A stretch of 64,000 nt of DNA from Chthonobacter albigriseus (GTDB lineage Bacteria; Pseudomonadota; Alphaproteobacteria; Rhizobiales; Pleomorphomonadaceae). Where the stretch lies: assembly GCF_013839445.1 (NCBI RefSeq), contig NZ_JACDIT010000001.1, positions 860,658-924,657 of the forward strand, in the 5' to 3' direction. The notes beneath the pieces are model-generated. The model did not search any database and was not told the DNA's origin. It saw nothing but the letters and a program-made list of their open reading frames with translations. The number at the start of each line of letters is the position of its first letter. Positions within the stretch are counted from its first letter, which is position 1. Position numbers and translations under genes: made by a program. Shown one piece after another: positions 1,795 to 49,559 of this stretch.

Positions 1795-4071
1795 ATGGCC
1801 GAGAATACCAAATCCGGGCTGTCGTTCACGGAGCAGGAGGCGCTGCTGTTCCACGCGCAAGGTCGGCCGGGCAAGCTGGAGATCATGCCGACCAAACCGA
1901 TGGCGACGCAGCGGGACCTGTCGCTCGCCTATTCGCCCGGCGTCGCCGTGCCGGTGCGCAAGATCGCCGAGGACCCCTCGCTCGCCTTCGACTACACCGC
2001 CCGCGGCAACATGGTGGCGGTGATCTCCAACGGCACCGCGATCCTGGGGCTCGGCAACCTCGGCCCGCTCGCCTCCAAGCCGGTGATGGAGGGCAAGGCC
2101 GTGCTCTTCAAGCGCTTCGCGGATGTGGATTCGATCGACTTGGAAGTCGACACGGAGGATCCGGACACCTTCATCAACTGCGTGCGCTACCTCGGGCCAT
2201 CCTTCGGCGGGATCAACCTGGAGGACATCAAGGCGCCGGAGTGCTTCATCATCGAGAGCCGCCTGCGCGAACTGATGGACATTCCGGTGTTCCACGACGA
2301 CCAGCACGGCACGGCCATCATCTCCACCGCCGGGCTGATCAACGCGCTGCACCTGACCGGACGCGACATCAGGACGACGAAGCTCGTCTGCAACGGCGCG
2401 GGGGCCGCCGGGATCGCCTGCATCGAGCTCGTCAAGGCGCTCGGCATGCCGCACCAGAACGTCATCCTCTGCGACACCAAGGGCGTGGTCTACAAGGGCC
2501 GCACCGAGGGCATGAACCAGTGGAAGTCCGCCCACGCGGTGGAAACCTCGGCCCGAAGCCTCGCCGAAGCGATGGACGGGGCGGACGTGGTGTTCGGCCT
2601 CTCGGCGAAGGGCGCGCTCTCCAAGGAGATGATCCTCTCGATGGCGAAGGACCCTATCATCTTCGCCATGGCAAATCCGGATCCGGAGATCACGCCGGAG
2701 GAGGCGCACGCCATCCGCGGCGACGCTATCGTGGCCACCGGACGGTCGGACTATCCCAACCAGGTCAACAACGTACTCGGTTTCCCCTACATCTTCCGCG
2801 GGGCGCTGGACGTGCGGGCGACAACCATCAACGACCGTATGAAGATCGCCGCGGCCGAGGCGCTGGCGCTGCTGGCGCGCGAGGACGTGCCGGACGAGGT
2901 GGCGGCGGCCTACCGGGGCCAGCGTCCCCGGTTCGGGCGTGACTACATCATCCCGGTGCCGTTCGATCCCCGGCTGATCTCCACGATCCCCGAGGCGGTC
3001 GCCCGGGCCGCCATCGACAGCGGCGTCGCCCGCAAGCCGATCGTCGACTGGGAACAGTACCGGCACCAGCTCTCCGCGCGCCGGGATCCGGCGGCCGGAA
3101 CGCTGCAGCGCATCTTCTCCAAGGTGAAGCAGAAGCCGCGGCGGATCGTGTTCGCCGAAGGCGAGGAGGAGCAGGTGATCCGTGCCGCGGCGAGCTTCGC
3201 CACACAGGGCCTCGGCACCGCGATCCTGGTCGGCCGCGAAGACCAGATCCGCGCGACCGCGGCGGCGGCCGGCATCGACCTCAACCGCGAGGGCATGCAG
3301 ATCGCCAACGCCCGGCTGTCCGCCCGCACCAAGGACTATGCCGACACCCTCTACGCCCGGCTGCAGCGCAAGGGCTTCCTGCACCGCGACTGCGTCCGGC
3401 TGGTCAACACCGACCGCAACTACTTCGGCGCGCTGATGGTGGCGCTCGGCGACGCCGACGCCATGGTGTCGGGGGTGACGCGGAACTACTCGGTGGTTCT
3501 GGAAGAGGTCTGCCAGGTGATCGATCCGAAGCCCGGGCAAAAGGTGATCGGCGTCTCGATCGCGCTCTGCCGCGGCCGGACCGTGCTGATCGCCGATACG
3601 GCGGTGCACGACATGCCGACGGCTGAGGAACTGGCGCATATCGCGGTTCAAGCGGCCCGGTTCGCCCGGCGGCTCGGCTACGATCCGCGGGTTGCGATGC
3701 TGGCCTACTCGACCTTCGGGCATCCGGAGGGCGAACGGTCGGCGCGGGTGCGGGAGGCGGTGCAGATCCTCGACCGGCAGCGGGTGGATTTCGAGTACGA
3801 CGGCGAGATGGCGGCCGATGTCGCCCTCAATCCGGACCGGATGGCGCTCTATCCGTTCTGCCGGCTGACGGGCCCGGCGAACGTGCTGGTGATGCCGGCG
3901 TTCCACTCTGCCTCGATCGCGACCAAGATGCTGCAGGAGCTCGGCGGATCGACCGTGATCGGGCCGCTGCTGGTCGGCTTGGATAAGCCGGTCCAGATCA
4001 TGCCGCTCGGAAGCCAGGACAGTGACATCGTCAACATGGCCGCTTTTGCGGCTTTCGACACCGTGGGATGA
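1795..4071 (+). CDS. maeB: NADP-dependent malic enzyme (malic enzyme domain fused to phosphotransacetylase-like domain)
   Basis: 758 aa. N-terminal malic enzyme motifs (VYTPGVA-like [19 protein letters not shown]) and C-terminal PTA-like domain. ATG at 1795 is in frame with the long ORF 1318..4071. Confidence 0.9.
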
Positions 4072-9214: not shown

Positions 9215-9991
9215 TCAGCGTTGCCCCATCTCGGCGACGGCGGCGAGGATGCGGGCGATGTCCTCGGGGCGTGAGAGGCGGTGGTCGCCGTCCTTGACGA
9301 GGGTGACGACCACGTCGTCGTGGACGAGGCGGTCGACGAGGAGAAGGGCGTGGGCGTAGGGGACGTCGGGATCCTGCATGCCCTGGACGATGTGGACGGG
9401 CGCGCCGATCCGGATGTCGTCGTCGAGGACGGTGTTGCGGGCACCGTCGTCCAGGAAGGCGCGGGTGATGACGGTGGGCTCGTCGGCGTAGGCGCTGGGA
9501 AGGCGCACGGAGCCGGTTGCGGCAAGCTCGCGACGCATGGCCTCGGTGAAGGCGGGCTCCATGAGGCGGGTGGCGAAATCCGGCGCCGGCGCGATCAGGA
9601 CGAGGCCGGCGAGCCGGTCGGCCCGATCGGCCGCCTGAAGCCGGCGGGCGAGGAGGAGTGCGATCCAGCCGCCCATGGAGGAGCCGACGAGGACGACCGG
9701 GCCTTCTGTGAAGCGATCGAGGACGGCCTCGGCCTCCTCCGCCCAGCGGCTGATGGTGCCGTCGGTGAAGAGGCCGCCGGAGGCGCCGTGGCCGGAATAG
9801 TCGAAGCGGACGACGCGGCGCCCGTTCCGCCGGCCCCACTCGGCCAGCGCCTCTGCCTTGGAGCCGGTCATGTCGGAGCGGAAGCCGCCGAGCCAGAGGA
9901 GCGCCGGTCCGACGCCTTCGTCGACGAGGAGGGCGATGGAGCGGGCGTCCGGGCCGGAGCCGACGACGAGCGTTTCGGGGGCGGACGGCAT
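9215..9991 (-). CDS. Alpha/beta hydrolase fold protein
   Basis: GSSMGG nucleophile elbow (GxSxG). Start at the internal Met [10 protein letters not shown]. Function not assignable from sequence. Confidence 0.7.
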
Positions 9992-10149
9992 GGGCGGACC
10001 TCGGGATGGGGTGCGGCGGGTGCGGGTTTGACGTTTGCCATGGTGGGCGGGTGTTGTGAATGGGCGGCGTGGGAAAACGGGGCTGTTCACGGCGCGCGCG
10101 GGAAAGGCGGGAGATCGGGGAAGGATCGCCGGCGCCGAGCGGGAGGGAA

Positions 10150-10217
10150 AAAAGCGTGGGTGGTCCGCCTGCGCGGACCATGACGGCGGGAAGGGGAGAG
10201 CGGGAGCGAGGGATAGG
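10150..10217. repeat. REP-like palindromic element copy A1 (core GGTCCGC-CTGC-GCGGACC plus ATGACGGCGGGAAGG flank)
   Basis: Same ~40-bp element recurs at 10290-10359, at 28757-28833 (reverse complement) and at 28827-28884. Confidence 0.7.
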
Positions 10218-10289
10218 TAGGACGATCAAGGGGGCAGGAGGAAATGTTGCAAAGTGGTGAGCCGGTGCCGAGCGGGCGCTTTCTGCTTT

Positions 10290-10359
10290 CATACCCGTCA
10301 TGGTCCGCGCAGGCGGACCATGAAGGCGGGAAGGGAGGAGGACGGAGCGAGCGAGACGG
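10290..10359. repeat. REP-like palindromic element copy A2 (TCATGGTCCGC-GCAG-GCGGACCATGA, 11-bp stem)
   Basis: Direct repeat of A1 including ~35 bp of downstream flank, with the 4-nt loop inverted. Confidence 0.7.
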
Positions 10360-10898
10360 CGCGACAGGGCGGGACGGCGGGGATATGCGGAGTGGGCAGC
10401 CGGGCGACCGAGTACCTTCGGCGTTCTCAACCGGCGTGGTCCGACTGCACGGGGGCGGGACAGTGGGAACGGTGAGGGAAGGGTTCATGGAAAGGAAGCG
10501 ATGACGGCGGAATCCCGCCGGGGTTGCCCAATCAGTATCCAGCCGAGGATTGACTTTTCGGCAGATAAGCACGACTTTGAGGCCCGTTGCTCCATGCGAT
10601 GGGCAGCCGTATCGATTCCTTGGATCCAGTGGCTCCTGCCGACGGCAGCGCACGGACCCAGGCTCCGGGGTGACCGGCGGGCGTTCCAGCGTTCCCCTGC
10701 AGGCACCACATCTCCCAGGGAGACCCGGATACCGAGCGGCGGCCCGCTTCGTGCGGGAAACCGGCGCCCCGGTCCTTCGTTTTCATCGAGGCTTTGTCCG
10801 GCAGCGATGCTTCCATGGCGAAGCGCTCGTCTGCGGCAAATGCCTTGGCGCTTCGAAGCCGATCGCCGTTCGTTGAAACAATAGAGGAGACACGAGCC

Positions 10899-22326: not shown

Positions 22327-23331
22327 TCAGTGGCCGCGGGCCGGCTCGGCGTCCGGCGGCAGGGGATCCTGGCCGCGCGTCTTCCAGAGCGAGGCGCCGA
22401 TGCCGACAGCCAGGATCAGGAAGGTGACGCCGAGCGACACGGCCGGCGGGATCTTGGCCAGGCCGAGCATGTCGGCAAGGAAGATCTTGGAGCCGATGAA
22501 GATCAGCAGCGAGGCCAGCGCGTACTTCAGGTAGACGAAGCGGTGCATCAGCGCCGCCAGGGCGAAGTAGAGGGCGCGCAGGCCGAGGATGGCGAAGATG
22601 TTGGAGGTGTAGACGATGTAGGGGTCGGTGGTGATGGCGAAGATCGCCGGCACGCTGTCGACCGCGAAGATCACGTCGGCGAACTCGACGAGAAGCAGCG
22701 CGAGGAGAAGCGGCGTGACGAAGGTCTTCAGCTTGCCGGTCGTCGGATCGGGAAGCTTCACCAGGAAGCGATCGCCGTGCAGCTCGTCGGTGACGGGCAG
22801 GTACTTGCGGGCGAGCCTGAGGACCGGGTTGTTGCCGACGTCCTGCTCCTTGTCGGCCATCATGATCATCTTGATGCCGGTGAGGATGAGGAAGGCGGCG
22901 AAGATGTAGAGGACCCAGCTGAACTCCGAGACGATGGCCGCACCGGCGGCGATCATGATGCCGCGCAGGACCAGCACGCCGATGATGCCCCAGACGAGCA
23001 CGCGATGCTGATGAATCCGCGGGATGTGGAAGTAGGCGAAGATCATCGCGATGACAAAGATGTTGTCCATCGCGAGCGACTTCTCGATGACGAAGCCGGT
23101 GATGTAGGCAAGGCCCAGTTCAGGCCCGAGGGACCACCAGACCCAGGCGCCGAAGGCGAGGCCGAGGGCGATGTAGAAGCCGGAGAGCAGGAAGCTTTCG
23201 CGGATGCCGATCTCGTGCGGCTTGCGATGCAGCACGCCGAGGTCGAAGACGAGAAGGACGAGGACGACCGAAACAAAGGCCAGCCACATCCAGCCCGGCT
23301 TTCCAAGGAAGTCGAGGTACAGGAATTCCAT
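22327..23331 (-). CDS. terC: TerC family integral membrane protein (Alx/TerC)
   Basis: Multiple TM helices with conserved TerC motifs (ALEKSLAMDNIFVIAMIF; FAVDSVPAIFAITTDPYIVYTSNIFAILGLRALYF). Confidence 0.85.
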   Translation of the reverse strand: MEFLYLDFLGKPGWMWLAFVSVVLVLLVFDLGVLHRKPHEIGIRESFLLSGFYIALGLAFGAWVWWSLGPELGLAYITGFVIEKSLAMDNIFVIAMIFAYFHIPRIHQHRVLVWGIIGVLVLRGIMIAAGAAIVSEFSWVLYIFAAFLILTGIKMIMMADKEQDVGNNPVLRLARKYLPVTDELHGDRFLVKLPDPTTGKLKTFVTPLLLALLLVEFADVIFAVDSVPAIFAITTDPYIVYTSNIFAILGLRALYFALAALMHRFVYLKYALASLLIFIGSKIFLADMLGLAKIPPAVSLGVTFLILAVGIGASLWKTRGQDPLPPDAEPARGH

Positions 23332-23569
23332 TTGGGTGAACACGCGGACGTCGGCTCGTTTCCGCCTGCGGATCCGACATCACGAAACGCCGACCAGTTT
23401 CGCCAGAGGGGCCCGGATCCGCCTGAGATGGACCGTATATGGCGAAGCCAAGGCGACGTTCAAGAGGCGCTCTAAGGGATAATGCTTATGGTGTATTGAA
23501 TGTATCAGGCCTGTCCAGCGCGCCGGGAGGGAGCGACGGCGCAGACCGATCGTTCCGAGGAGAAGCGGC

Positions 23570-27532: not shown

Positions 27533-28678
27533 TCACGTGCCGAGACCGTCGAAGAAATCGCGCATCCGGGCGAAGAAGCCGGTGGATTCCGGGTGGTTTT
27601 CGCCGGAGGAGCCGCGCTCGAACTCCTCCAGGAGCTCGCGCTGACGGCGGGTGAGGCTCTGGGGCGTTTCGACCACCACCGTGATGTACATGTCGCCAGT
27701 GTCGCGGGAGCGGAGCACCGGCATGCCCTTCTGGCGCAGACGGAACTGCTTGCCGGTCTGGGTGCCCTCGGGGACCTTCACGCGGGTCTTGCCACCGTCG
27801 ATCGTCGGCACATCGAAGCCCCCGCCGAGGGCAGCCGTGGTCATGGAGATCGGAACGCGGCAGTAGAGATCCGCTCCGTCGCGCTGGAAGAACTCGTGCG
27901 GCTTCAACGAGAGGAAGATGTAGAGGTCGCCGGAGGGACCGCCGCGGAGGCCGGCTTCGCCCTCGCCGGCGAGGCGGATGCGGGTGCCGTCCTCGATGCC
28001 GGCCGGGATGTTGACGGAAAGGGTGCGCTCCTGGGTCTGGCGGCCGGTGCCGGCGCAGGCGTCGCAGGGGTCGGCGATGGTCTCGCCGCGGCCCTGGCAG
28101 GTGGGGCAGGTGCGCTCGATGGTGAAGAAGCCCTGGGTGGCGCGGACTTTTCCGGCGCCGCCGCAGGTGCGGCAAGGAACCGGGCTGGTGCCGGGCTTGG
28201 CGCCGGTGCCGGAGCACTTGGTGCAGGTGATGGAGGTCGGGACCTCGATCTCGACGGTCTTGCCGGAGAAGGCCTCCTCCAGGCTGATCTCCAGGTTGTA
28301 GCGCAGGTCCGCGCCGCGCTCGCGCCCGCCGGAGCGCCCGCCGCCGCGGCGGCCGCCGCCCATGAACTCGCCGAAGATGTCGTCGAAGATGTCGGCCATC
28401 GACGAGGAGAAGCCCTCGCCGCCGCCGAAGGGGCCGCGTCCGCCCATGCCGTTCTCGAAGGCGGCATGGCCGAAGCGGTCGTAGGCGGCGCGCTTCTGCG
28501 GGTCCTTCAGAACTTCATAGGCCTCGTTGGCCTCCTTGAAGCGCGCCTCGGCGGTGGTGTCGCCCGGGTTCTTGTCGGGGTGGAGCTGCATGGCGAGCTT
28601 GCGGAAGGCGCCCTTCAGCTCCTTCTCGTCGGCCGTCTTGCCGACGCCGAGAACCTCGTAGTAGTCGCGCTTGGCCAT
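27533..28678 (-). CDS. dnaJ: Molecular chaperone DnaJ
   Basis: J domain (DYYEVLGV…HPDKN), G/F-rich region, four CxxCxGxG zinc-finger repeats. Confidence 0.97.
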
Positions 28679-28756: not shown

Positions 28757-28833
28757 TCTCAATCGTCATGGTCCGCGCAGGCGGACCACCCACGCATTTC
28801 TCGTCAACCCGCCGACCACGGCAAGGAAAAAGT
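28757..28833. repeat. REP-like palindromic element copy B1 (reverse complement of A1)
   Basis: GTCATGGTCCGCGCAGGCGGACCACCCACGC equals the reverse complement of the A1 core and flank; located in the dnaK-dnaJ intergenic region. Confidence 0.7.
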
Positions 28834-28884
28834 CGTGGGCGGTCCGTCTTCGCGGACCATGACGGGGAAACGGGCACACCACAG
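28827..28884. repeat. REP-like palindromic element copy B2 (same orientation as A1; loop variant TCTTC)
   Basis: AAAAGTCGTGGGCGGTCCGTCTTCGCGGACCATGACGGGGAAACGG. Forms an inverted pair with B1 (BIME-like). Confidence 0.7.
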
Positions 28885-28913
28885 AAAACACCCGGTGCGT
28901 TTCCGCACCGGGT
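28881..28913 (-). terminator. Intrinsic terminator/attenuator between dnaK and dnaJ
   Basis: On the minus strand ACCCGGTGCG-GAAA-CGCACCGGGT followed by GTTTTCTGTGG, ~25 nt after the dnaK stop. Confidence 0.6.
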
Positions 28914-28937: not shown

Positions 28938-30836
<1,899 letters not shown>

Positions 30837-36193: not shown

Positions 36194-36799
36194 TCAGAAA
36201 GGCGTGCGGGAGCGGATGGCGGCGGCGAGGGTGCCCTCGTCCAGATAGTCCAGCTCGCCGCCGACGGGCACGCCGTGGGCGAGCCGCGAGACCCTGACGT
36301 CGAGGCCCTGCAGGCGGTCGGTGACGTAGTGGGCGGTGGTCTGGCCGTCGACCGTGGCGTTGACGGCGAGGATGACCTCGCGGACGGCCGGGTCGCGGGC
36401 GCGCTCGATCAGGCCGGCGATCGTCAGGTCGTCCGGGCCGATGCCGTTGAGCGGGGAGAGCACGCCGCCGAGCACGTGGTAACGGGCGTCGATGGCGCCG
36501 GCGCGCTCCAGGGCCCAGAGGTCGGACACGTCCTCCACCACAACGATGACGGAGGCGTCGCGACGCGGGTCGGTGCAGACGATACACGGGTCCGCCGTGT
36601 CGACGTTGCCGCAGACGGAGCAGACCTTCACGGTGTCGCGGACGCGAACGAGCGCCTCGGCAAGCGGCTCCAGCAGCTGGTCCTTCTTCTTGACGAGCTG
36701 CAACGCCGCGCGCCGGGCCGACCGCGGCCCGAGGCCGGGAAGGCGGGCGAGCAGCTGGATGAGGCGTTCGATCTCGGGTCCGGTGACGCGGCGCGACAT
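36194..36799 (-). CDS. recR: Recombination protein RecR
   Basis: HhH N-terminus ([20 protein letters not shown]), C4 zinc finger (CSVCGNV…CIVC), Toprim domain. Confidence 0.95.
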
Positions 36800-36853
36800 G
36801 GGATGGGGACTGGCCTCAACGGTTCGCGCCGGGGGCGGGCGCGGGGCGCCCGG

Positions 36854-37180
36854 TCAGAAGGGGAGCTTCAGGCCCGCCGGCAGGTTGAGGCCGCCGGTGA
36901 CGGCCTGCATGCGCTCGGCGACCGCCGTCTCCAGCTTGACGCGTGCATCGGCGTGGGCGGCGAGGATCAGGTCCTCCAGGATCTCCGCCTCGTCCTCCTT
37001 GAGGAGCGACGGGTCGATCTTGATACCGCGCAGGTCGCCCTTGCCGGAGAGCGCGACGGTGACGAGGCCGGCGCCGGATGCGCCGGTGATCTCCAGCCGG
37101 GCGATCTCGTCCTGCGCCGCGGCCATGCGGCCCTGCAGCTCCTGCGCCTGCTTCATCATCTTGCCGAGGTCGCCGAACAT
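36854..37180 (-). CDS. ybaB: Nucleoid-associated protein YbaB/EbfC
   Basis: [33 protein letters not shown]… canonical YbaB. Confidence 0.92.
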
Positions 37181-37196
37181 GGGGGTGCTCCTTCAG

Positions 37197-39041
37197 TCAG
37201 TCGTCGTCGAAATCGGACGGCACCCAGTCGGGTTCGAGCCAGTCCGCGGAGGGGTCGAGGGGGTAGTCGCCGGAGGGCGGCAGATCGCCGGTCGCGTCGG
37301 CGGTCATCGGGAGGGCGGGATCGCCGGGCATGCGGACGTCGACGATCTCGGCGCCGGGGAAGCGGCGGAGAATGGCGGAGACCACCGGGTCGGCGCGGGC
37401 GTCGTCGACCAGCGTGCGGCGCGCCGCGTCGCGGCGGGCCTGGACGGTTTCCTCGCCGGCGTCGCGAGAGACGGCGACGATCCAGCGGCGGCCGGTCCAC
37501 TGGGTGAGCTTGCGGCCAAGGTCGCCGGCGAGCGTGGGGCTGGCCGTCGGCGCCGGGTTGAACTCGATGCGGCCATCCTCGAAGCGGACGAGGTGGACGT
37601 CGCGTTCGAGCGCGATCTTCAGGCCGATCTCGCGGCGTTCGGCACAGAGGCCGATGACGTCCGCGAAGGAGGCGAGCGCCATGGTGGGCGCTTCGGCGGG
37701 CTGCTGCTGGGCCCGGGGGGCTTCGGTGCGGACAGGCCGGTCGAAACCGCCGCCGCGGGCGGCTCCTTGCGCGCCGCCGCTACCGCCGCCGCTTCCGCCG
37801 CCGGATGGGCCGGGTGCGGGCGCGCCGCTGCCGCCGATGCCTTCGCGGAGCTGGCGGAGCGCCTCGTCGGGGGTGGGCAAGTCGGCGGCGTAGGCGAGGC
37901 GGACGAGGACCATCTCGGCGGCCGGAAGCGCGCGCGGGGCGGCCTGGACCTCGGCGATGCCCTTGAGGAGGATTTGCCAGGCGCGGCTGAGGACGCGGAC
38001 GGAGAGGGCGTCGGCGAAGGCGCGGCCGCGGACCCGCTCGCCCTCGGTGAGGGCGGGATCCTCGCTCATCGCCGGCACATGCTTGAGGCGGGTGACGAGG
38101 TGGACGAAGGCGGCGAGGTCGGAGAGCACGACGGCCGGATCGGCGCCGGTGTCGTACTGGTCCGACAGTTCGGCGAGCGCGGCGGCGACGTCGCCCTTCA
38201 TGATAGATTCGAAAAGGTCGATGACGCGCCCGCGGTCGGCAAGGCCGAGCATGGAGCGGACGCTCTCGGCAGTGACGGCGCCGTCGCCGTAGGCGATCGC
38301 CTGGTCCAGGATGGTGAGGGCGTCGCGGGCGGAGCCCTCCGCGGCGCGGGCGACGAGAGCGATCGCTTCGGGCTCGACCTCGACCTTCTCGGCCTCGGCG
38401 ATGTGCTTCAGGTGGGCGCCGAGCAGGCCGGTGTCGATGCGGCGCAGATCGAAGCGCTGGCAGCGCGACAGCACCGTGATCGGCACCTTGCGGATCTCGG
38501 TGGTGGCGAAGACGAACTTCACGTGCTCCGGCGGCTCCTCCAGCGTCTTCAGGAGGGCGTTGAACGCCTGGGTGGAGAGCATGTGCACTTCGTCGATGAT
38601 GTAGACCTTGTAGCGGGCGGTCGCCGGCTTGTAGCGGGCCGCCTCGATGATCTCGCGTACGTCGCCGACGCCGGTGTGGGAGGCGGCGTCCATCTCGATG
38701 ACGTCGACGTGCCGGCCTTCCATGATGGCGCGGCAGTGGACGCCCTCCTCGCGGAGGTCGACGGTGGGGCGTTCCACCTTGCCGGGGAGCTCGTAGTTGA
38801 GGGCGCGGGCGAGGATGCGGGCGGTGGTGGTCTTGCCCACGCCGCGGACGCCGGTGAGCATCCAGCCCTGGGCGATGCGGCCGCTCTCGAAGGCGTTGGA
38901 GAGCGTGCGAACCATGGCGCCATGGCCGATCAGGTCGTCGAAGGAAGATGGCCTGTACTTGCGGGCGAGCACGCGATAGGGGCTGCCGGGCGCGGGCGCT
39001 TCGGCGGGCAACAGGGCCGGGGTTTCGGAAATGTCGTCCAT
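37197..39041 (-). CDS. dnaX: DNA polymerase III subunits gamma/tau
   Basis: 615 aa from MDDISETPALL; Walker A GVRGVGKTT, clamp-loader SRC motif, Pro/Gly-rich tau linker and C-terminal tau domains. The 84 upstream codons in the ORF overlap the SRP RNA and are non-coding. Confidence 0.93.
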   Translation of the reverse strand: MDDISETPALLPAEAPAPGSPYRVLARKYRPSSFDDLIGHGAMVRTLSNAFESGRIAQGWMLTGVRGVGKTTTARILARALNYELPGKVERPTVDLREEGVHCRAIMEGRHVDVIEMDAASHTGVGDVREIIEAARYKPATARYKVYIIDEVHMLSTQAFNALLKTLEEPPEHVKFVFATTEIRKVPITVLSRCQRFDLRRIDTGLLGAHLKHIAEAEKVEVEPEAIALVARAAEGSARDALTILDQAIAYGDGAVTAESVRSMLGLADRGRVIDLFESIMKGDVAAALAELSDQYDTGADPAVVLSDLAAFVHLVTRLKHVPAMSEDPALTEGERVRGRAFADALSVRVLSRAWQILLKGIAEVQAAPRALPAAEMVLVRLAYAADLPTPDEALRQLREGIGGSGAPAPGPSGGGSGGGSGGAQGAARGGGFDRPVRTEAPRAQQQPAEAPTMALASFADVIGLCAERREIGLKIALERDVHLVRFEDGRIEFNPAPTASPTLAGDLGRKLTQWTGRRWIVAVSRDAGEETVQARRDAARRTLVDDARADPVVSAILRRFPGAEIVDVRMPGDPALPMTADATGDLPPSGDYPLDPSADWLEPDWVPSDFDDD

Positions 39042-39140
39042 CGTCCTCGTCCGCCGCTCGCCCCGTTCGTCAGGCCGGCGCTCCGGGACCCGCTTCGGCG
39101 CCGGTGCATCATCCGCGGAGCTCAGGGAGTGACGGACCCG

Positions 39141-39250
39141 GAGAAAAGGGTGGGAGGCCGACGAGTGACCCGAGCCGAAGCTCGTTGGGGCTGCTTCCTT
39201 CCGGACCTGACCCGGTTGGCGAGTGGCACGTCCACCGCCAACCTCCCGGC
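39141..39250 (-). ncRNA. ffs: Signal recognition particle RNA (4.5S/ffs, small bacterial type)
   Basis: Minus strand contains GGUCAGGUCCGGAAGGAAGCAGCC, identical to the E. coli 4.5S domain IV core. 5' GGGAGG pairs with 3' CCUCCC and it ends CACCCUUUUCUC. Sits ~100 nt upstream of dnaX as in the conserved ffs-dnaX-ybaB-recR cluster. Confidence 0.85.
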
Positions 39251-39383
39251 GACACATATCGCGGCTCGGCGGCCAAAACGCAAGAGCGGCCATGGCGCGA
39301 CCACAAGGGACCTCGCCAGCAAGCCGGCCACCATGAAATTTTCGTCATTGTGGCGGAGGTCCCTGTTTCGGCGCCTTTGTCGG

Positions 39384-41363
39384 GCTAGGTTCATGACGAG
39401 AACGGAACAGGTGCGGCCCAGGCGGGGTTTGCAAACCCTTGCGGTTGATGGAAACCTGTCGGCTGCTGTCATTCCTCTGGAGGGTAGATTGACGATCGTC
39501 CGGTCCGGGTTCTTGTCTCGCCTTGCCGCCGCGGTCGCGGTGGCCGTGTCGCTCGCCGCCCCGCCCGCGCTGGCGCAAGCCGATCCGCCCTGGCGGCATG
39601 CGACGGCACTGACCGGCGATCCGCGCCACCCGGCGGACTTCAAGCACTTCGACTACGTGAACCCGGACGCGCCGAAGGGCGGGCGGGTGCGGCTGGGCGT
39701 GCAGGGCGGATTCGACAGCACGAACGTCCACCTCGGACTGAAGGGCGAACCAGCTCCGGGCGTCGGGCTCGTCTACGAGACGTTGATGACCTCGTCGCTC
39801 GACGAACTCGACATCTCGTCGATGTATGGCCTGCTGGCGGACGGCCTGAAGTATCCGGACGACTATTCCTGGGTGATCTACCGGCTGAACCCGAACGCCC
39901 GCTGGCAGGACGGCCAGCCGGTGACGCCGGAGGACGTGATCTGGAGCATGGAGACGCTGAAGGAGATCAATCCCAACGACGGGTTCTACTTCAGCCACGT
40001 GACGAAGGCGGAGAAGGTGGGCGAGCGGGAGGTGAAATTCACCTTCGATGCGCCCGGCAACCGCGAACTGCCGCATATCGTGGGGCAGCTGACCGTGCTG
40101 CCGAAGCACTGGTGGGAAGGCACCGACGCCAGCGGCCAGAAGCGCAACATCCGCAACACCACGCTGGAATTCCCCATGGGATCGGGGCCCTACAAGGTGA
40201 AAGCGATCGACCCCGGCCGGCGGGTGGTGATGGAGCGTGATCCCAACCACTGGGGCAAGGACCTGCCGACCCAGGTCGGCCAGAACAATTTCGACGAGAT
40301 CATCTACGAGACCTACAAGGATGCGGTTGTGCTCTTGGAGGCGTTCAAGGGCGACCGGTTCGATTTCCGGGTGGAGAACTCGGCCAAGAACTGGGCGACG
40401 GGCTACGACTTTCCGGCCAAGAACGATGGCCGGGTGGTTCTGGCCACCTATCCGGACAAGGCGTCCGGCGTGATGCAGGCCTTCGTGCCGAACCTTCGCC
40501 GGGAGAAGTTCAAGGACACCAAGGTGCGGCAGGCCCTGAACCTGGCGTTCGACTACGAATCGCTGAACCGCACCGTGTTCTTCGGGCAGTACAAGCGCGT
40601 GGCGAGCTTCTTCGAAAACACCGAGCTGGCGGCGCGCGGCTTGCCCTCGCCGGAGGAGCTGGCGATCCTGGAGCCGCTGAAGGACCAGGTCCCGCCGGCG
40701 GTGTTCACCACGCCCTACGAGAACCCGGTGAACGGCTCTCCAGAGAAGCTCCGGGAAAACCTGCGCACGGCGGTGAAGCTTCTGGGCGAAGCAGGCTGGA
40801 CCTTCAAGGGCAGCCAGCTGGTGAACGCCAAGGGCGAGCCATTCACGATCGAGTACCTCACCCAGTCGCAGAACGACGAGCGCTTCGTCACGCCCTATGC
40901 CCAGGTGTTGAAGCGGATCGGCATCACCATGACCGTGCGGATCGTGGAGTCCGCGCAGTTCGTGAACCGCGTGCGCGATTTCGACTACGACATGATCATG
41001 GTGCCCTGGGGCCAGTCGCTTTCGCCAGGCAACGAGCAGCGTCGATACTGGGGCTCCAAGGCGGCGGACACGCCGGACTCCCAGAACTATGCGGGCATCA
41101 AGGACCCGGCGGTGGACGCCCTGATCGAACGGGTGATCTTCGCTAAGGATCGGGCGGACCTGGTGGCGGCGACCAAAGCACTGGACCGGGTGCTCTTAGC
41201 CAACCACTTCGTGATCCCGCAGTGGACGCTGGACTACGACCGCTACGCCTACTGGAACCGCTTCTCGCATCCGGAAAAGCTGCCGGAATACTCGTTCGGC
41301 TTCCCGACCGTGTGGTGGTGGGACGCGGAGAAGGCCAAGGCGACAGGCGGAGGGGCCAACTGA
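39384..41363 (+). CDS. yejA: ABC transporter substrate-binding protein, family 5 (YejA-like peptide/microcin C binding protein), copy 1
   Basis: SBP_bac_5 features throughout; signal peptide …LAAAVAVAVSLAAPPALA. Alternative TTG start at 39489 with GGAGGG SD gives a cleaner 27-aa signal peptide. Carried inside the artefactual 1623-aa six-frame ORF. Confidence 0.8.
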   Translation, partial: ARFMTRTEQVRPRRGLQTLAVDGNLSAAVIPLEGRLTIVRSGFLSRLAAAVAVAVSLAAPPALAQADPPWRHATALTGDPRHPADFKHFDYVNPDAPKGGRVRLGVQGGFDSTNVHLGLKGEPAPGVGLVYETLMTSSLDELDISSMYGLLADGLKYPDDYSWVIYRLNPNARWQDGQPVTPEDVIWSMETLKEINPNDGFYFSHVTKAEKVGEREVKFTFDAPGNRELPHIVGQLTVLPKHWWEGTDASGQKRNIRNTTLEFPMGSGPYKVKAIDPGRRVVMERDPNHWGKDLPTQVGQNNFDEIIYETYKDAVVLLEAFKGDRFDFRVENSAKNWATGYDFPAKNDGRVVLATYPDKASGVMQAFVPNLRREKFKDTKVRQALNLAFDYESLNRTVFFGQYKRVASFFENTELAARGLPSPEELAILEPLKDQVPPAVFTTPYENPVNGSPEKLRENLRTAVKLLGEAGWTFKGSQLVNAKGEPFTIEYLTQSQNDERFVTPYAQVLKRIGITMTVRIVESAQFVNRVRDFDYDMIMVPWGQSLSPGNEQRRYWGSKAADTPDSQNYAGIKDPAVDALIERVIFAKDRADLVAATKALDRVLLANHFVIPQWTLDYDRYAYWNRFSHPEKLPEYSFGFPTVWWWDAEKAKATGGGAN

Positions 41364-47957: not shown

Positions 47958-49559
47958 TCAGGCTGCGACGTCGCGGGTGAACTTGCGGATCCGCTCGTCC
48001 AGGGCTGCCGCCGCCTGGGACAGATCGTCGGCAATCGTGGAGACCGTATCGGCTACCCGGGCCGTATCCACCGCCGCACCGGAAACGCCGGAAATAGTCG
48101 CTCCCAGTTCGGCCGTGCCGCGGGAAACCTCTCCTGCCCTGAGGGATATGCCGGAGGTGGTCGCGGACTGCTGCTCCATGGCGGCGGCGATGCTGCCGCT
48201 GGAGTGCTCGATCGTGTCAAGCGTGGTCGTCAGTGAGCCGATCTGATCGACGACTGCCGCCGTTGCTGCCTGGATGGCACCGATCTGGCCGGTGATCTCG
48301 TCGGTGGCCTTTGCGGTCTGGGCGGCGAGCACCTTGACCTCGTTGGCGACAACGGCGAAGCCACGGCCCATCTCGCCGGCGCGGGCCGCCTCAATGGTGG
48401 CGTTGAGGGCGAGGAGATTGGTCTGGTCGGCGATGCCGCGGATGAGATCGACCACCGTGCCGATCCGCTCGGTGTTGGCGGCAAGCGATTCCACCTGGCG
48501 GCGGGCCTCGCGACCCTTGACGGCGCCGTCGGCGGTGACCCGGTTGGCGGCTTCGATCTGGCGGCCGACGTCGCGGACGGTTTCGGAGAGCTGGCGGGTG
48601 GCGTCTGCGACGGCTCCGACGTGTTCGCTGTCGCGCCCGGCCGCGCCCGCGGCGGCAGCGGCGGAGGTGCGGGTCAGCGAGGCGACGCGGGTCAACTCGC
48701 CGGCGGTGCTGGTCATGGTCTCGGCGCTGGACTTGACGAAGCCGACTATCTGGCCAGCCTCCTCGCGGAACGCGCCGACCACCTCCTCCAGGAGAGCGGC
48801 CCGGCGTTGGCGCTCGGCCACGCGGACGGCCTCCTCCTGCTTCAGCCGATCGTTCTCGATCATCGACAGGCGGAAGACCTCGACGGCGCCGGCAATGCGG
48901 CCGACCTCGTCGGCGCGATCCTGGCCATCGACGACGATACCGGTGTCTCCGCCGGCAAGGCGGCCGACGGCATCGGCGATAGATCCGAGCGAGCGGCTGA
49001 CACCACTGCCCAGGCGCCACGCATAGAAGACGAAGCCGAGAAGAAGCGGGGCGCAAAGCGCGCCGATGGTGACGGCGATGCGAAGAAGCACGATGTCGAC
49101 GCCGGCAACCGGCGACGCCGCAACGATCACCGTGTCCGCACCCGCCACGGGAAGCGCATAGGCCATCATCTCCACGGGACCAGACGTGGAGGGCGAGGTG
49201 CCGGTGTAGCGAACGAGCGAGCCGCCGGCGCGGGCGGCCGCCAACCAGTCCTCGACCGGACCTGCGATCGTCCCGGCGACGAGCTTTCCGCTGCGATCCA
49301 GGACGGCCACCTGCGTGTCGCCGGCCACATTGGACGCTCCGGGTCCGGCGCCGGCCGACGCTGCGGCGACTTCGGCAGCACTCCGAACGGCAAGCCCGCG
49401 GGCCTCGAAGAGGCTTTCGCGGAACTGATAGAGCGCCAAACCCGTCCCGACGCCCATGATCAGGACAGCGACGCAGATGACGACGAGGAACCTGACACCC
49501 AAGGTCAGTCGGGAGGTTCCGGGCTGGGACGGAAGGAGGGGTTCGCGACGGTAAATCAT
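47958..49559 (-). CDS. Methyl-accepting chemotaxis protein
   Basis: N-terminal TM, periplasmic segment, second TM, HAMP, and MA signalling domain ([31 protein letters not shown]). The upstream 239 codons of the ORF are GC artefact. Confidence 0.85.

Follow-up and report, generated by a model that had tools for sequence, protein, structure and literature searches.

The closest described system is the class of CGTC-tagged REPs of Di Nocera, De Gregorio & Rocco 2013 (BMC Genomics 14:522; PMC3733652). According to the accessible parts of that paper, these units start with the tag CGTC or TGTC (variant CCTC) and have stems of 8–9 bp beginning with an A-T and then a T-A pair, loops of 4–5 nt of a few major types and a tail CCA. 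They are predominantly alphaproteobacterial, dispersed and essentially intergenic, with many copies per genome, and most REPs are argued to be transcribed. Dimers mostly have their tags outside ('HH') and lie 20–100 bp apart; tandem dimers are rare. Stem and loop lengths are 8+4 in family 1, 8+5 in family 2 and 9+5 in families 3 and 4. The superfamily includes Neisseria dRS3 and Rickettsia RPE-6. In the same parts of the paper, no CGTC unit flanks a RAYT or other transposase gene, and many of the host genomes encode such enzymes.

Four copies of such a repeat, c1 to c4, are present in the window, that is, the whole stretch of 64,000 nucleotides that was analysed. The best explanation as a whole, with a probability of about 0.8, is that they are copies of a CGTC-tagged REP, a short, non-coding and non-autonomous repeat. 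The features of the CGTC superfamily that were found here are the tag, the stem of 8–9 bp with A-T/T-A, the 4-nt loop, the CCA tail, the intergenic dispersal, the pairs with tags outside and the lack of a transposase gene nearby (window and 0.89 Mb of REP-flanking DNA). Judged by its sequence, the repeat belongs to this already described, predominantly alphaproteobacterial class and is, as repeat families go, an ordinary one. The following features were recorded (window coordinates):

10128–10143, plus strand: left-flank direct repeat GCCGGCGCCGAGCGGG, 94% identity to its partner at 10261–10276
10155–10185 (10148–10185 with T-tract), minus strand: REP copy c1, complete unit, full match to the 31-nt family consensus
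10261–10276, plus strand: second copy of the left-flank repeat, GCCGGTGCCGAGCGGG, partner of 10128–10143
10296–10326, plus strand: REP copy c2, symmetric tag-hairpin-tag variant, 3 consensus mismatches, all in the tail
10436–10452, plus strand: putative remnant of a third unit, GTGGTCCGACTGCACGG, 17-nt match of 88%, at the expected ~135-nt period
28764–28794 (28764–28799 with CATTT), plus strand: REP copy c3, complete unit, 0 consensus mismatches
28834–28864 (28827–28864 with ACTTTTT), minus strand: REP copy c4, 2 consensus mismatches
28764–28864, no strand: inverted pair c3 + c4 in the dnaK-dnaJ spacer, tags outside (REPIN-like, an 'HH dimer' in the terms of Di Nocera 2013)
28880–28913, minus strand: intrinsic terminator/attenuator after dnaK, ACCCGGTGCG-GAAA-CGCACCGGGT + GTTTTCTGTG, canonical, not part of the repeat

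The exact core GGTCCGC-N4-GCGGACC occurs at 10162–10179, 10302–10319 and 28770–28787 of the 64-kb window, and a fourth core with one mismatch at 28841–28858. In 100 dinucleotide-preserving shuffles, the mean number of exact matches was 0.01, and three matches were never reached (0/100). When the 64 kb were scanned with the 31-nt consensus (≤7 mismatches), c1 to c4 were the sole copies; the null was 0.1 hits, every one of them at 7 mismatches. Further CGTC-type hairpin families were not found in the window. Rfam gave no match at the repeats at gathering thresholds. In E-value mode, only sub-threshold CRISPR-DR28, miRNA and Caulobacter sRNA matches appeared there, and these were treated as chance. 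A CRISPR array was rejected, as CRISPR-DR28 only reached 24 and 23 bits (gathering score: 35), orientations are mixed and the spacing is irregular. Plasmid BLAST had no match for either a 206-nt region or a 38-nt consensus. In viral contigs, the motif was found in only four stretches.

The unit is asymmetric, about 36 nt long and can be written as YGTC-A-TGGTCCGC-GMAG-GCGGACCA-Y-CCA-CG-NN-TT. It consists of an unpaired 5' tag (C/T)GTC, a GC-rich stem (A)TGGTCCGC / GCGGACCA(T) of 8–9 bp, a 4-nt loop GMAG and an unpaired tail CCA(CG) followed by NN-TT. A G-poor pyrimidine tract usually precedes the tag. The genome scan returned at least 116 loci with the core. Of the 147 exact core matches listed, 115 have the flanks GTCA and CCA(CG). 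The 32 matches without these flanks come from Streptomyces, Nocardia, Acidobacteria and similar genomes and look like chance hits.

In the 115 copies among the matches listed, GTC follows a C in 65% and a T in 32% of cases; GTC itself was part of the orientation criterion for copies (115 of the 147 pattern matches listed carry it). All four window copies start with CGTC. The loop of the same 115 copies is GAAG in 58, GCAG in 28, GGAG in 7 and CTTC/CTGC in 3, and the window has three loops GCAG and one GAAG. Among the matches listed, 71 copies have A-T and 63 have A.C as the first pair of the stem ATGGTCCGC/GCGGACCAT, and the second pair is always T-A. About half of the copies listed, window copies included, thus have a stem of 8 bp, as seen in c1 and c3. 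The tail of the copies listed shows CCA at +21 to +23 in 87–92%, then CG in 80–89%, and TT at +28/+29 in 70%. The CCA tail is present in c1, c3 and c4, and c2 carries an inverted tag instead.

Changes of stem pairs were counted in those partner copies that were unconstrained by the search pattern: 20 were double-compensatory, 5 kept a wobble and 6 broke the pair. At the level of sequence, the stem changes are mostly compensatory, and the tag YGTCA, the loop GMAG and the tail YCCACG are almost unchanged across at least four orders.

The asymmetry of the unit bears on the first-pass annotation, which had described a CATG-flanked palindrome. This holds only for c2, with CATG on both sides. The left side of c1 is GTGG and the right side of c3 is CCAC because the unit runs CGTCA...CCCACG. 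The loops CTGC and GCAG of two copies 140 nt apart were confirmed. Their inversion had been read as a hallmark of REP/BIME elements; it mostly reflects opposite orientation of the units, and c2 is a symmetric derivative. In the tag-to-tail direction, the loop is GMAG in 93 of the 115 copies among the matches listed vs CTTC/CTGC in 3.

A dispersed REP-type family had also been proposed, and this reading stands: besides the second locus in the window, the unit was found at upwards of 80 loci in the genomes of other alphaproteobacteria, from at least four orders, and the motif is thus clearly present elsewhere. It is abundant in Mongoliimonas (21 copies in eight 8-kb loci), Dongia, Micropepsaceae and Acetobacteraceae. 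Among the matches listed, 141 of 142 copies are intergenic (midpoint compared with predicted genes; predicted coding fraction: 0.80). The 45 singletons listed lie between unidirectional (27), convergent (13) and divergent (5) genes, and the tag side is often 4–40 nt from a stop codon. With respect to the replication strand, singletons were split 7 vs 15, without a demonstrated bias (p = 0.13). The pairs listed comprise 29 with tags outside (spacers mostly 19–32 nt), 7 with tags inside and 7 in tandem. In two loci of an Acetobacteraceae MAG, the pair spacers are conserved in either orientation, which makes the whole pair a repeated unit.

c1 and c2 are located in the divergent region between the hydrolase (start 9991, minus strand) and infC (start ~10898, plus strand). 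A look-up of proteins identical to the hydrolase gave no match. The gene calls, a crude GC3-based heuristic, gave no credible gene between these starts, in agreement with the earlier statement that there is no credible ORF. In c1, the tag CGTC is at 10185–10182, the stem arms TGGTCCGC/GCGGACCA are at 10180–10173 and 10168–10161, the loop GCAG is at 10172–10169 and the tail CCCACG at 10160–10155, followed by CTTTTTT at 10154–10148. As A 10181 is opposite C 10160, there is no ninth pair and the stem is 8 bp. In the predicted fold (−17.5 kcal/mol, z = −3.5), the hairpin is closed by a CG/CG helix. The T6 run directly follows the extended stem, and an upstream gene on the strand of c1 is absent. 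The sequence of c1 is identical to Mongoliimonas copies.

The sequence of c2 is CCGTCA-TGGTCCGC-GCAG-GCGGACCA-TGAAGG, with 14-nt arms that are 93% complementary (predicted fold: −32.5 kcal/mol, z = −4.8). Among the matches listed, four further symmetric copies of this kind were seen in other genomes. When the hairpin was excluded from the local alignment, none of 500 shuffles scored as well as the left-flank match GCCGGYGCCGAGCGGG. The left-flank repeat at 10128/10261, which the first-pass annotation does not mention, places c1 and c2 in a local duplication of ~135–140 bp. A shared right flank of ~35 bp had been noted before, and only its beginning was retained: TGA(C/A)G belongs to the element itself as its tag, about 11 further bases are shared (GCGGGAAGGG), and the purine-rich similarity past ~16 nt does not exceed chance (an equal score is reached by 97 of 500 shuffles). 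The candidate for a third tandem unit at 10436 was rejected, with flanks not above chance and more than 7 consensus mismatches; from its sequence, 10436–10452 is weakly supported as a decayed unit. Comparable tandem arrays were found in Mongoliimonas, with periods of 165–226 bp. The divergent promoter region that holds c1 and c2 is the rarest context of the family among the singletons listed, and the two copies probably have no dedicated function there.

The recurrence reported at 28757–28884 is real; its exact form is the inverted pair at 28764–28864. c3 is CGTCA-TGGTCCGC-GCAG-GCGGACCA-CCCACG-CATTT and c4 is CGTCA-TGGTCCGC-GAAG-ACGGACCG-CCCACG-ACTTTTT. c4 has two substitutions in the stem, of which one leaves a T-G wobble and the other breaks the pair. 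The arms of the pair are 39 nt long, 85% complementary and 23 nt apart. RNA of the minus strand is predicted to form one long hairpin (−75 kcal/mol, z = −8.4). The dnaK terminator at 28880–28913 is upstream of both copies on the transcribed strand.

The dnaK-dnaJ spacer measures 259 nt in the window vs a median of ~80 nt in 67 relatives. The element was found in none of the spacers of these 67 relatives and in none of 80 related loci (280 kb). The closest metagenomic DnaJ is 76% identical. The absence from the 67 related spacers indicates that c3/c4 is an insertion and, as far as the compared sequences go, a lineage-specific one. An independent 2.7-kb short-read Logan contig, the only one found to encode an identical DnaJ, breaks inside c3, and we counted this as support for a multi-copy element in the source organism. 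The pair would be co-transcribed only on read-through of the dnaK terminator. Its transcript would then form a very stable hairpin, which could further damp dnaJ or protect the upstream message.

New copies of the REP may arise by insertion of single units or of whole inverted pairs. The mover would be a trans-acting protein that reads the hairpin together with the single-stranded tag and tail, rather than a neighbouring RAYT. Once inserted, copies could be multiplied and remodelled on the spot, through tandem duplication as well as through recombination or template switching that involves their identical stems. The best reading of c2 is an inverted pair that collapsed by a deletion between identical 3' stem arms or, alternatively, a quasi-palindrome 'corrected' through template switching. 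A widely conserved protein that binds or cleaves the hairpin, either a new REP-mobilising enzyme or a domesticating host factor, would explain the fixed unpaired parts and the covarying stem without a RAYT; we regard this as speculative and on balance unlikely. If it is true, the family offers a handle for finding the protein by phylogenetic profiling.

A different explanation is that the hairpins are mainly RNA elements, i.e. terminators or mRNA-stabilising 3' stem-loops that set operon ratios, and that the repetition is a by-product of selection. In the E. coli malE-malF case, REPs act as RNA elements within an operon. The hairpins studied here are GC-rich and stable, and among the singletons listed they concentrate in unidirectional and convergent contexts, with only 5 of 45 in divergent ones. 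The short distance of the tag side to the stop codon points in the same direction, as do the TT after the tail in ~70% of the matches listed, the T6 run of c1, the position of c3/c4 inside the dnaK-dnaJ operon and the transcription of most REPs argued for in the accessible text of Di Nocera 2013 (PMC3733652). Nevertheless, the T-run is short and begins ~8 nt past the main stem in most copies, and a terminator needs no identity of tag, loop and tail across orders. c1 and c2 are upstream of both neighbouring genes, c3/c4 already have the canonical dnaK terminator upstream, and the element is missing from the 67 related dnaK-dnaJ spacers. The unidirectional singletons, with 15 in the same and 12 in the opposite orientation to transcription, show no clear bias; this can be held against the explanation, but as the hairpin forms on both strands, the split itself is neither for nor against an RNA function. 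Taken as the main explanation, RNA function is somewhat unlikely. For c1 to c4 themselves, a role as mRNA-stabilising stem-loop or putative binding site is possible.

The classic REP/REPIN model, in which a RAYT (an IS200/IS605-like Y1 HUH transposase) with its gene elsewhere in the genome mobilises the units, fits the layout of tagged hairpins, inverted pairs and pairs repeated with their spacer, which resembles GTAG REPs and REPINs. The tag, however, is CGTC and not GTAG, and tblastn with six RAYT/TIRYT sequences found no match with E < 0.2 in the window and 0.89 Mb of REP-flanking DNA, where the search of the source genome spans 64 kb. Clustering of the proteins next to the repeats gave no recurrent family. 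RAYT-linked REPs are reportedly lineage-specific as a rule, whereas the sequence of this repeat is nearly identical across orders. CGTC units flank no RAYT or transposase gene in the accessible text of PMC3733652, which describes the class without a transposase. The IS200-like RAYT partner suggested by the first-pass annotation is thus unsupported, and the model as a whole is very unlikely. Operator sites of a dimeric transcription factor at the hydrolase/infC and dnaJ promoters would account for palindromic cores upstream of the hydrolase, infC and dnaJ. This is highly improbable: the unit occurs in dozens of contexts unrelated to each other, most of them 3' of genes, related dnaK-dnaJ spacers do not have it, and an asymmetric unit with a covarying stem and fixed unpaired parts is the opposite of what is expected of a duplex operator. 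The chance of a purely local duplication or a random palindrome with no family behind it is negligible. c1 and c2 do lie in a duplication of ~140 bp, but the chance level of the core is 0.01, a second locus is 18 kb away and 115 flank-matched copies are among the matches listed.

For annotation, the CGTC-tagged REP accounts for two oddly long intergenic regions and for a break point of short-read assembly. It can be searched for by the definition YGTCATGGTCCGC-GMAG-GCGGACCAYCCACG, which is common to many soil and freshwater alphaproteobacteria. Beyond membership in the family, only the dnaK-dnaJ insertion and the symmetric derivative c2 add anything among the elements of the window. To our knowledge, CGTC-type REPs are a REP class without a known mobilising enzyme. 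With its covarying stem, near-fixed unpaired bases and conserved whole pairs, the sub-family is a clean test case for the mobilisation of CGTC REPs.

The GTAG REPs of E. coli and Pseudomonas have been proposed to influence mRNA stability and termination. Like these REPs, BIMEs and REPINs, the repeat forms short tagged hairpins in many intergenic copies, and like REPINs, its inverted pairs fold as one long hairpin and behave as a repeated unit. Unlike GTAG REPs, its tag is CGTC or TGTC instead of GTAG/GGAG, no RAYT was found in the window and the 0.89 Mb, and its sequence is conserved across orders and not lineage-specific. An alternation of the BIME type, with IHF or gyrase motifs, was not observed.

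The covarying stem and the fixed single-stranded flanking bases are shared with the subterminal hairpins of IS200/IS605 elements (IS608, ISDra2). Such a pattern would be expected of single-stranded DNA that a protein recognises in its folded form. Unlike in IS200/IS605, there is no TnpA/TnpB nearby, and the units are 36 nt long and not the ends of a 1–2-kb element. A GC-rich hairpin, often just past stop codons, and the T6 run of c1 are reminiscent of Rho-independent terminators. In most copies, however, the T-run is weak or displaced, both orientations are used, and termination does not require the conserved tag, loop and tail. A terminator consensus scan reported none of c1 to c4 as a terminator.

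The unit sequence was not found in the text of the literature searched, and the RepRanger 2025 paper contains nothing specific to the repeat. Within the CGTC class, CGTC-1 is the closest family. Back-translation of VIPAKAGI and SFPRKRES, two intragenic peptides in Additional file 3 of PMC3733652, gave its layout; none of the intragenic peptides in the accessible material of that paper corresponds to the window stem. The two layouts are CGTC-AT-TCCCGC-GAAA-GCGGGA-AT-CCA in CGTC-1 and CGTC-AT-GGTCCGC-GAAG-GCGGACC-AT-CCA here. Both have a GC-rich stem with CCGC at its end, and in both the loop is 4 nt long (GAAR/GMAG). As described for CGTC REPs in the accessible text, the repeat is found mainly between unidirectional and convergent genes and forms heterodimers with different stems or loops. 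Unlike CGTC-1 as given there, it has the stem GGTCCGC instead of TCCCGC, one pair longer, a longer tail, CCACG-NN-TT, and, preceding the tag, a G-poor pyrimidine tract. The combination of stem and loop is 9+4, which differs from CGTC-1 to -4 as the text of the paper describes them, or 8+4 where the first pair is A.C. Measured against that description in the accessible parts of PMC3733652, the sequence, with its 9-bp stem and 4-nt loop, counts as a new member of the CGTC class.

The exact core GGTCCGC-N4-GCGGACC was present three times in the window (10162-10179, 10302-10319 and 28770-28787), against a mean of 0.01 chance matches in dinucleotide-preserving shuffles. A fourth copy, at 28841-28858, had a single mismatch in the core. 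A consensus scan of the 64 kb (31 nt, ≤7 mismatches) found these four copies and nothing further. The copies (c1 to c4) and their neighbours are:

9215-9991, minus strand: alpha/beta-hydrolase gene
10155-10185, minus strand: c1
10296-10326, plus strand: c2
start ~10898, plus strand: infC
27533-28678, minus strand: dnaJ
28764-28794, plus strand: c3
28834-28864, minus strand: c4
28880-28913, minus strand: canonical intrinsic terminator/attenuator hairpin, ACCCGGTGCG-GAAA-CGCACCGGGT then GTTTTCTGTG
28938-30836, minus strand: dnaK

In common orientation, c1, c3 and c4 read CGTCA-TGGTCCGC-G(C/A)AG-GCGGACCA-CCCACG-(C/A)NTTT. As the three share one tag-to-tail layout, the element is asymmetric. The first-pass annotation had correctly placed c1 and c2 140 nt apart with inverted loops (CTGC vs GCAG) and noted a recurrence near 28757-28884, which is the pair c3 and c4 (28764-28864). 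The loop inversion, which it took as a REP/BIME hallmark, is explained by the orientation of asymmetric units. The CATG-flanked symmetric palindrome it proposed as the motif exists in c2 only, which has a tag at both ends (CCGTCA...TGAAGG) and no CCA tail.

The pattern TGGTCCGC-N4-GCGGACCA was scanned against 185,579 species genomes and gave at least 116 loci. The motif occurs elsewhere too: among the matches listed, the asymmetric flanks were shared by at least 115 copies (115 of 147 exact matches). The remaining 32 listed matches (Streptomyces, Nocardia, Acidobacteria and similar) lacked them and look like chance occurrences in GC-rich DNA. Carriers among the matches listed were Hyphomicrobiales (Mongoliimonas terrestris with many copies, Methylobrevis, Pleomorphomonas, Oryzibacter, Chthonobacter, and MAGs labelled Devosia, Xanthobacteraceae, Pseudolabrys and Beijerinckiaceae), Rhodospirillales (Dongia of the Dongiaceae, Ferrovibrio), Acetobacteraceae (Rhodopila, Acidisphaera, others), Micropepsaceae and one Rhodobacterales MAG. 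The window copies were identical or nearly identical to those of Mongoliimonas. Typical copies also occurred in MAGs labelled Flavobacteriaceae or Candidatus Saccharibacteria (loci L017, L029, L035, L044 and L060, contigs of 63-65% GC), which are probably mis-binned alphaproteobacterial DNA.

In the 115 copies among the matches listed, the base preceding GTC was C (65%) or T (32%), and the loop was mostly GAAG (58), GCAG (28) or GGAG (7), with three in reverse sense. The stem was followed by Y, CCA (87-92%), CG (80-89%), NN and TT (~70%), and G made up only 7-12% at positions -12 to -9. A G-depleted, pyrimidine-rich tract was seen at -15 to -5 before the CGTC tag, e.g. at window 10186-10200 (minus strand) and in L032, L057 and L114. 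It had 80-96% pyrimidines in Mongoliimonas and window copies. This tract is a compositional feature rather than a conserved sequence, and may either belong to the unit or reflect a target preference.

Stem covariation was counted on partner copies from a mismatch-tolerant scan, which were not forced to fit the search pattern. Changes in stem pairs were two-sided with pairing kept in 20 cases (e.g. GGTCGGC/GCCGACC, CCTCCGC/GCGGAGG and GGTACGC/GCGTACC), kept a wobble in five and broke the pair in six. The tag, loop and tail of these copies stayed constant while the stems varied. This indicates that the structure is under selection and that the unpaired parts are constrained in sequence. A variable paired stem with fixed unpaired bases is the signature expected of a single strand that folds and is recognised by a protein, and not of a duplex operator. 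Partners of inverted pairs often had differing, compensated stems, e.g. GGTCCGC with GGTCGGC or CCTCCGC (L056, L066, L028, L113, L041, L088), which would speak for two independent hairpins rather than a single long cruciform.

Placement was analysed on 142 copies (≤5 mismatches) among the carrier loci listed, 0.70 Mb in all. The midpoint of only one copy fell inside a predicted gene, at a predicted coding fraction of 0.80. Singletons lay between unidirectional (27), convergent (13) or divergent (5) genes, and between unidirectional genes 15 had the same and 12 the opposite orientation. Singletons showed no demonstrable replication-strand bias (7 vs 15, p = 0.13); such a bias would have suggested a mechanism acting on single-stranded DNA. 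Pairs within 250 nt were mostly inverted with tags outside (29, spacers mostly 19-32 nt), followed by tags inside (7) and tandem (7). In an Acetobacteraceae MAG, different pairs carried one spacer sequence in either orientation (L102, L111); therefore, whole pairs are repeated units, as in REPINs. The tags-inside pairs at L058 1817-1885, L079 3692-3761 and L091 5851-5919 (Pleomorphomonas koreensis and, twice, a Rhodobacterales MAG) were spaced by 29-30 nt of AT-rich sequence, had inverted flanks on the outside (CCGAGA ... TCTCGG) where the CCACG tail would stand, and are a distinct sub-type.

Tandem arrays in Mongoliimonas had periods of 165-226 bp, flanking DNA included. Four nearly identical 226-bp repeats of unit and flanks were seen in M. 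terrestris (L116 3049-3760), and further arrays at L078 1023-1505 and L032 6549-6930 had periods of ~195 and 165-185 bp. Window 48249-48472, within the predicted gene 47958-49502 (minus strand), was ~78% similar in nucleotides to L116 4235-4432 (plus) and 2228-2396 (minus), which may represent a conserved domain or a further repeat.

The setting of c1 and c2, a divergent intergenic region, is the rarest context for the family. The GC3-based gene call found no credible gene between the hydrolase gene and infC, in agreement with the earlier reading. A left-flank repeat, GCCGGYGCCGAGCGGG, occurred at 10128-10143 and 10261-10276 (0 of 500 shuffles scored as well), and the right flank common to both copies was the tag plus GCGGGAAGGG. 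Of the ~35 bp of shared right flank originally described, this part stood; the purine-rich similarity past GCGGGAAGGG was not above chance. c1 and c2 therefore represent a local duplication of ~140 bp. Tag-hairpin-tag forms like c2 were found in four other genomes among the matches listed. Such a form may derive from a tags-outside pair whose identical 3' stem arms served as end points of a deletion or, alternatively, from template-switch "correction" of a quasi-palindrome. A putative decayed third unit at 10436-10452 had no statistical support.

On the transcribed strand, the dnaK stop codon is directly followed by the terminator-like hairpin with its T-run, then c4, spacer, c3 and, 85 nt on, dnaJ. 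The c3/c4 pair folded as one hairpin (-75 kcal/mol, z = -8.4) and is possibly an extra read-through barrier or a 3'-end protection. The dnaK-dnaJ spacer was 259 nt, vs a median of ~80 nt (range 28-350) in 67 metagenomic loci with DnaJ 50-76% identical, and 0 of 80 related dnaJ loci (280 kb) had the element. Thus, c3/c4 is a lineage-specific insertion rather than a conserved operon part. The sole public contig with an identical DnaJ (short-read Logan contig SRR3597124_8535, L117 1-30) ended inside c3, as expected of a multi-copy repeat. The nearest metagenomic DnaJ was 76% identical, so the collections searched held no close sequenced relative. In R. palustris, a CGTC-3 REP overlaps the annotated DnaJ start (PMC3733652), so REPs have arrived independently in this spacer.

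Two Rfam RNA motifs were also seen in the window. A terC motif (RF03067, 59.3 bits vs a gathering score of 39.9) lay at 23365-23424 (minus), upstream of a predicted gene (22327-23343, minus). A bacterial small SRP RNA (RF00169, 54.2 bits) at 39150-39246 (minus) fell within the long ORF 36492-41363 (plus) of a crude gene finder, so this ORF call is probably wrong there.

Neither the window nor 0.89 Mb of loci gave a tblastn match at E < 0.2 to six RAYT/TIRYT sequences (Additional file 5 of PMC3733652), and all-against-all clustering of predicted neighbour proteins found no family recurring beside the repeats. The proposed RAYT partner is therefore unsupported, in agreement with the accessible text of PMC3733652. 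The REP-like reading was right in kind; in detail, its motif definition needed correction and its RAYT link lacks support. The hairpin family is dispersed, intergenic and structure-constrained. Its unpaired bases are fixed, inverted pairs are frequent, tandem amplification occurs locally and no transposase is linked to it. A protein acting in trans, through recognition of the folded strand, may insert units or pairs, and inserted copies may later be remodelled through recombination between stems. The family bears on what mobilises or maintains CGTC REPs.

In the accessible text of Di Nocera, De Gregorio & Rocco (2013, PMC3733652), CGTC-tagged REPs carry CGTC, or often TGTC, at one end. Their stems span 8-9 bp and have complementary A-T residues at the first two positions, the loop is 4-5 nt long and the tail is CCA. 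Their dimers have tags mostly outside ("HH") and 20-100 bp between partners. They lie mainly between unidirectional and convergent ORFs, predominate in alphaproteobacteria and are not associated with RAYT or other transposase genes. The family agrees with this description in tag, stem, loop, tail, dimers, location, host range and transposase absence. The stem and loop geometries in that text are 8+4, 8+5 and 9+5; here it is 9+4, or 8+4 where A.C is the first pair, and the stem is GGTCCGC. None of the intragenic peptides listed there corresponds to this unit, and the sequence was absent from the text of the literature searched. We therefore class the family as a new member of the CGTC-REP class, with a stem type undescribed in the accessible text that may already stand in the consensus figure of PMC3733652. 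CGTC-1, back-translated from VIPAKAGI and SFPRKRES, intragenic peptides in Additional file 3 of PMC3733652, reads CGTC-ATTCCCGC-GAAA-GCGGGAAT-CCA. Its layout matches that of CGTC-ATGGTCCGC-GAAG-GCGGACCAT-CCA here, but the CGTC-1 stem differs in sequence and has one pair fewer.
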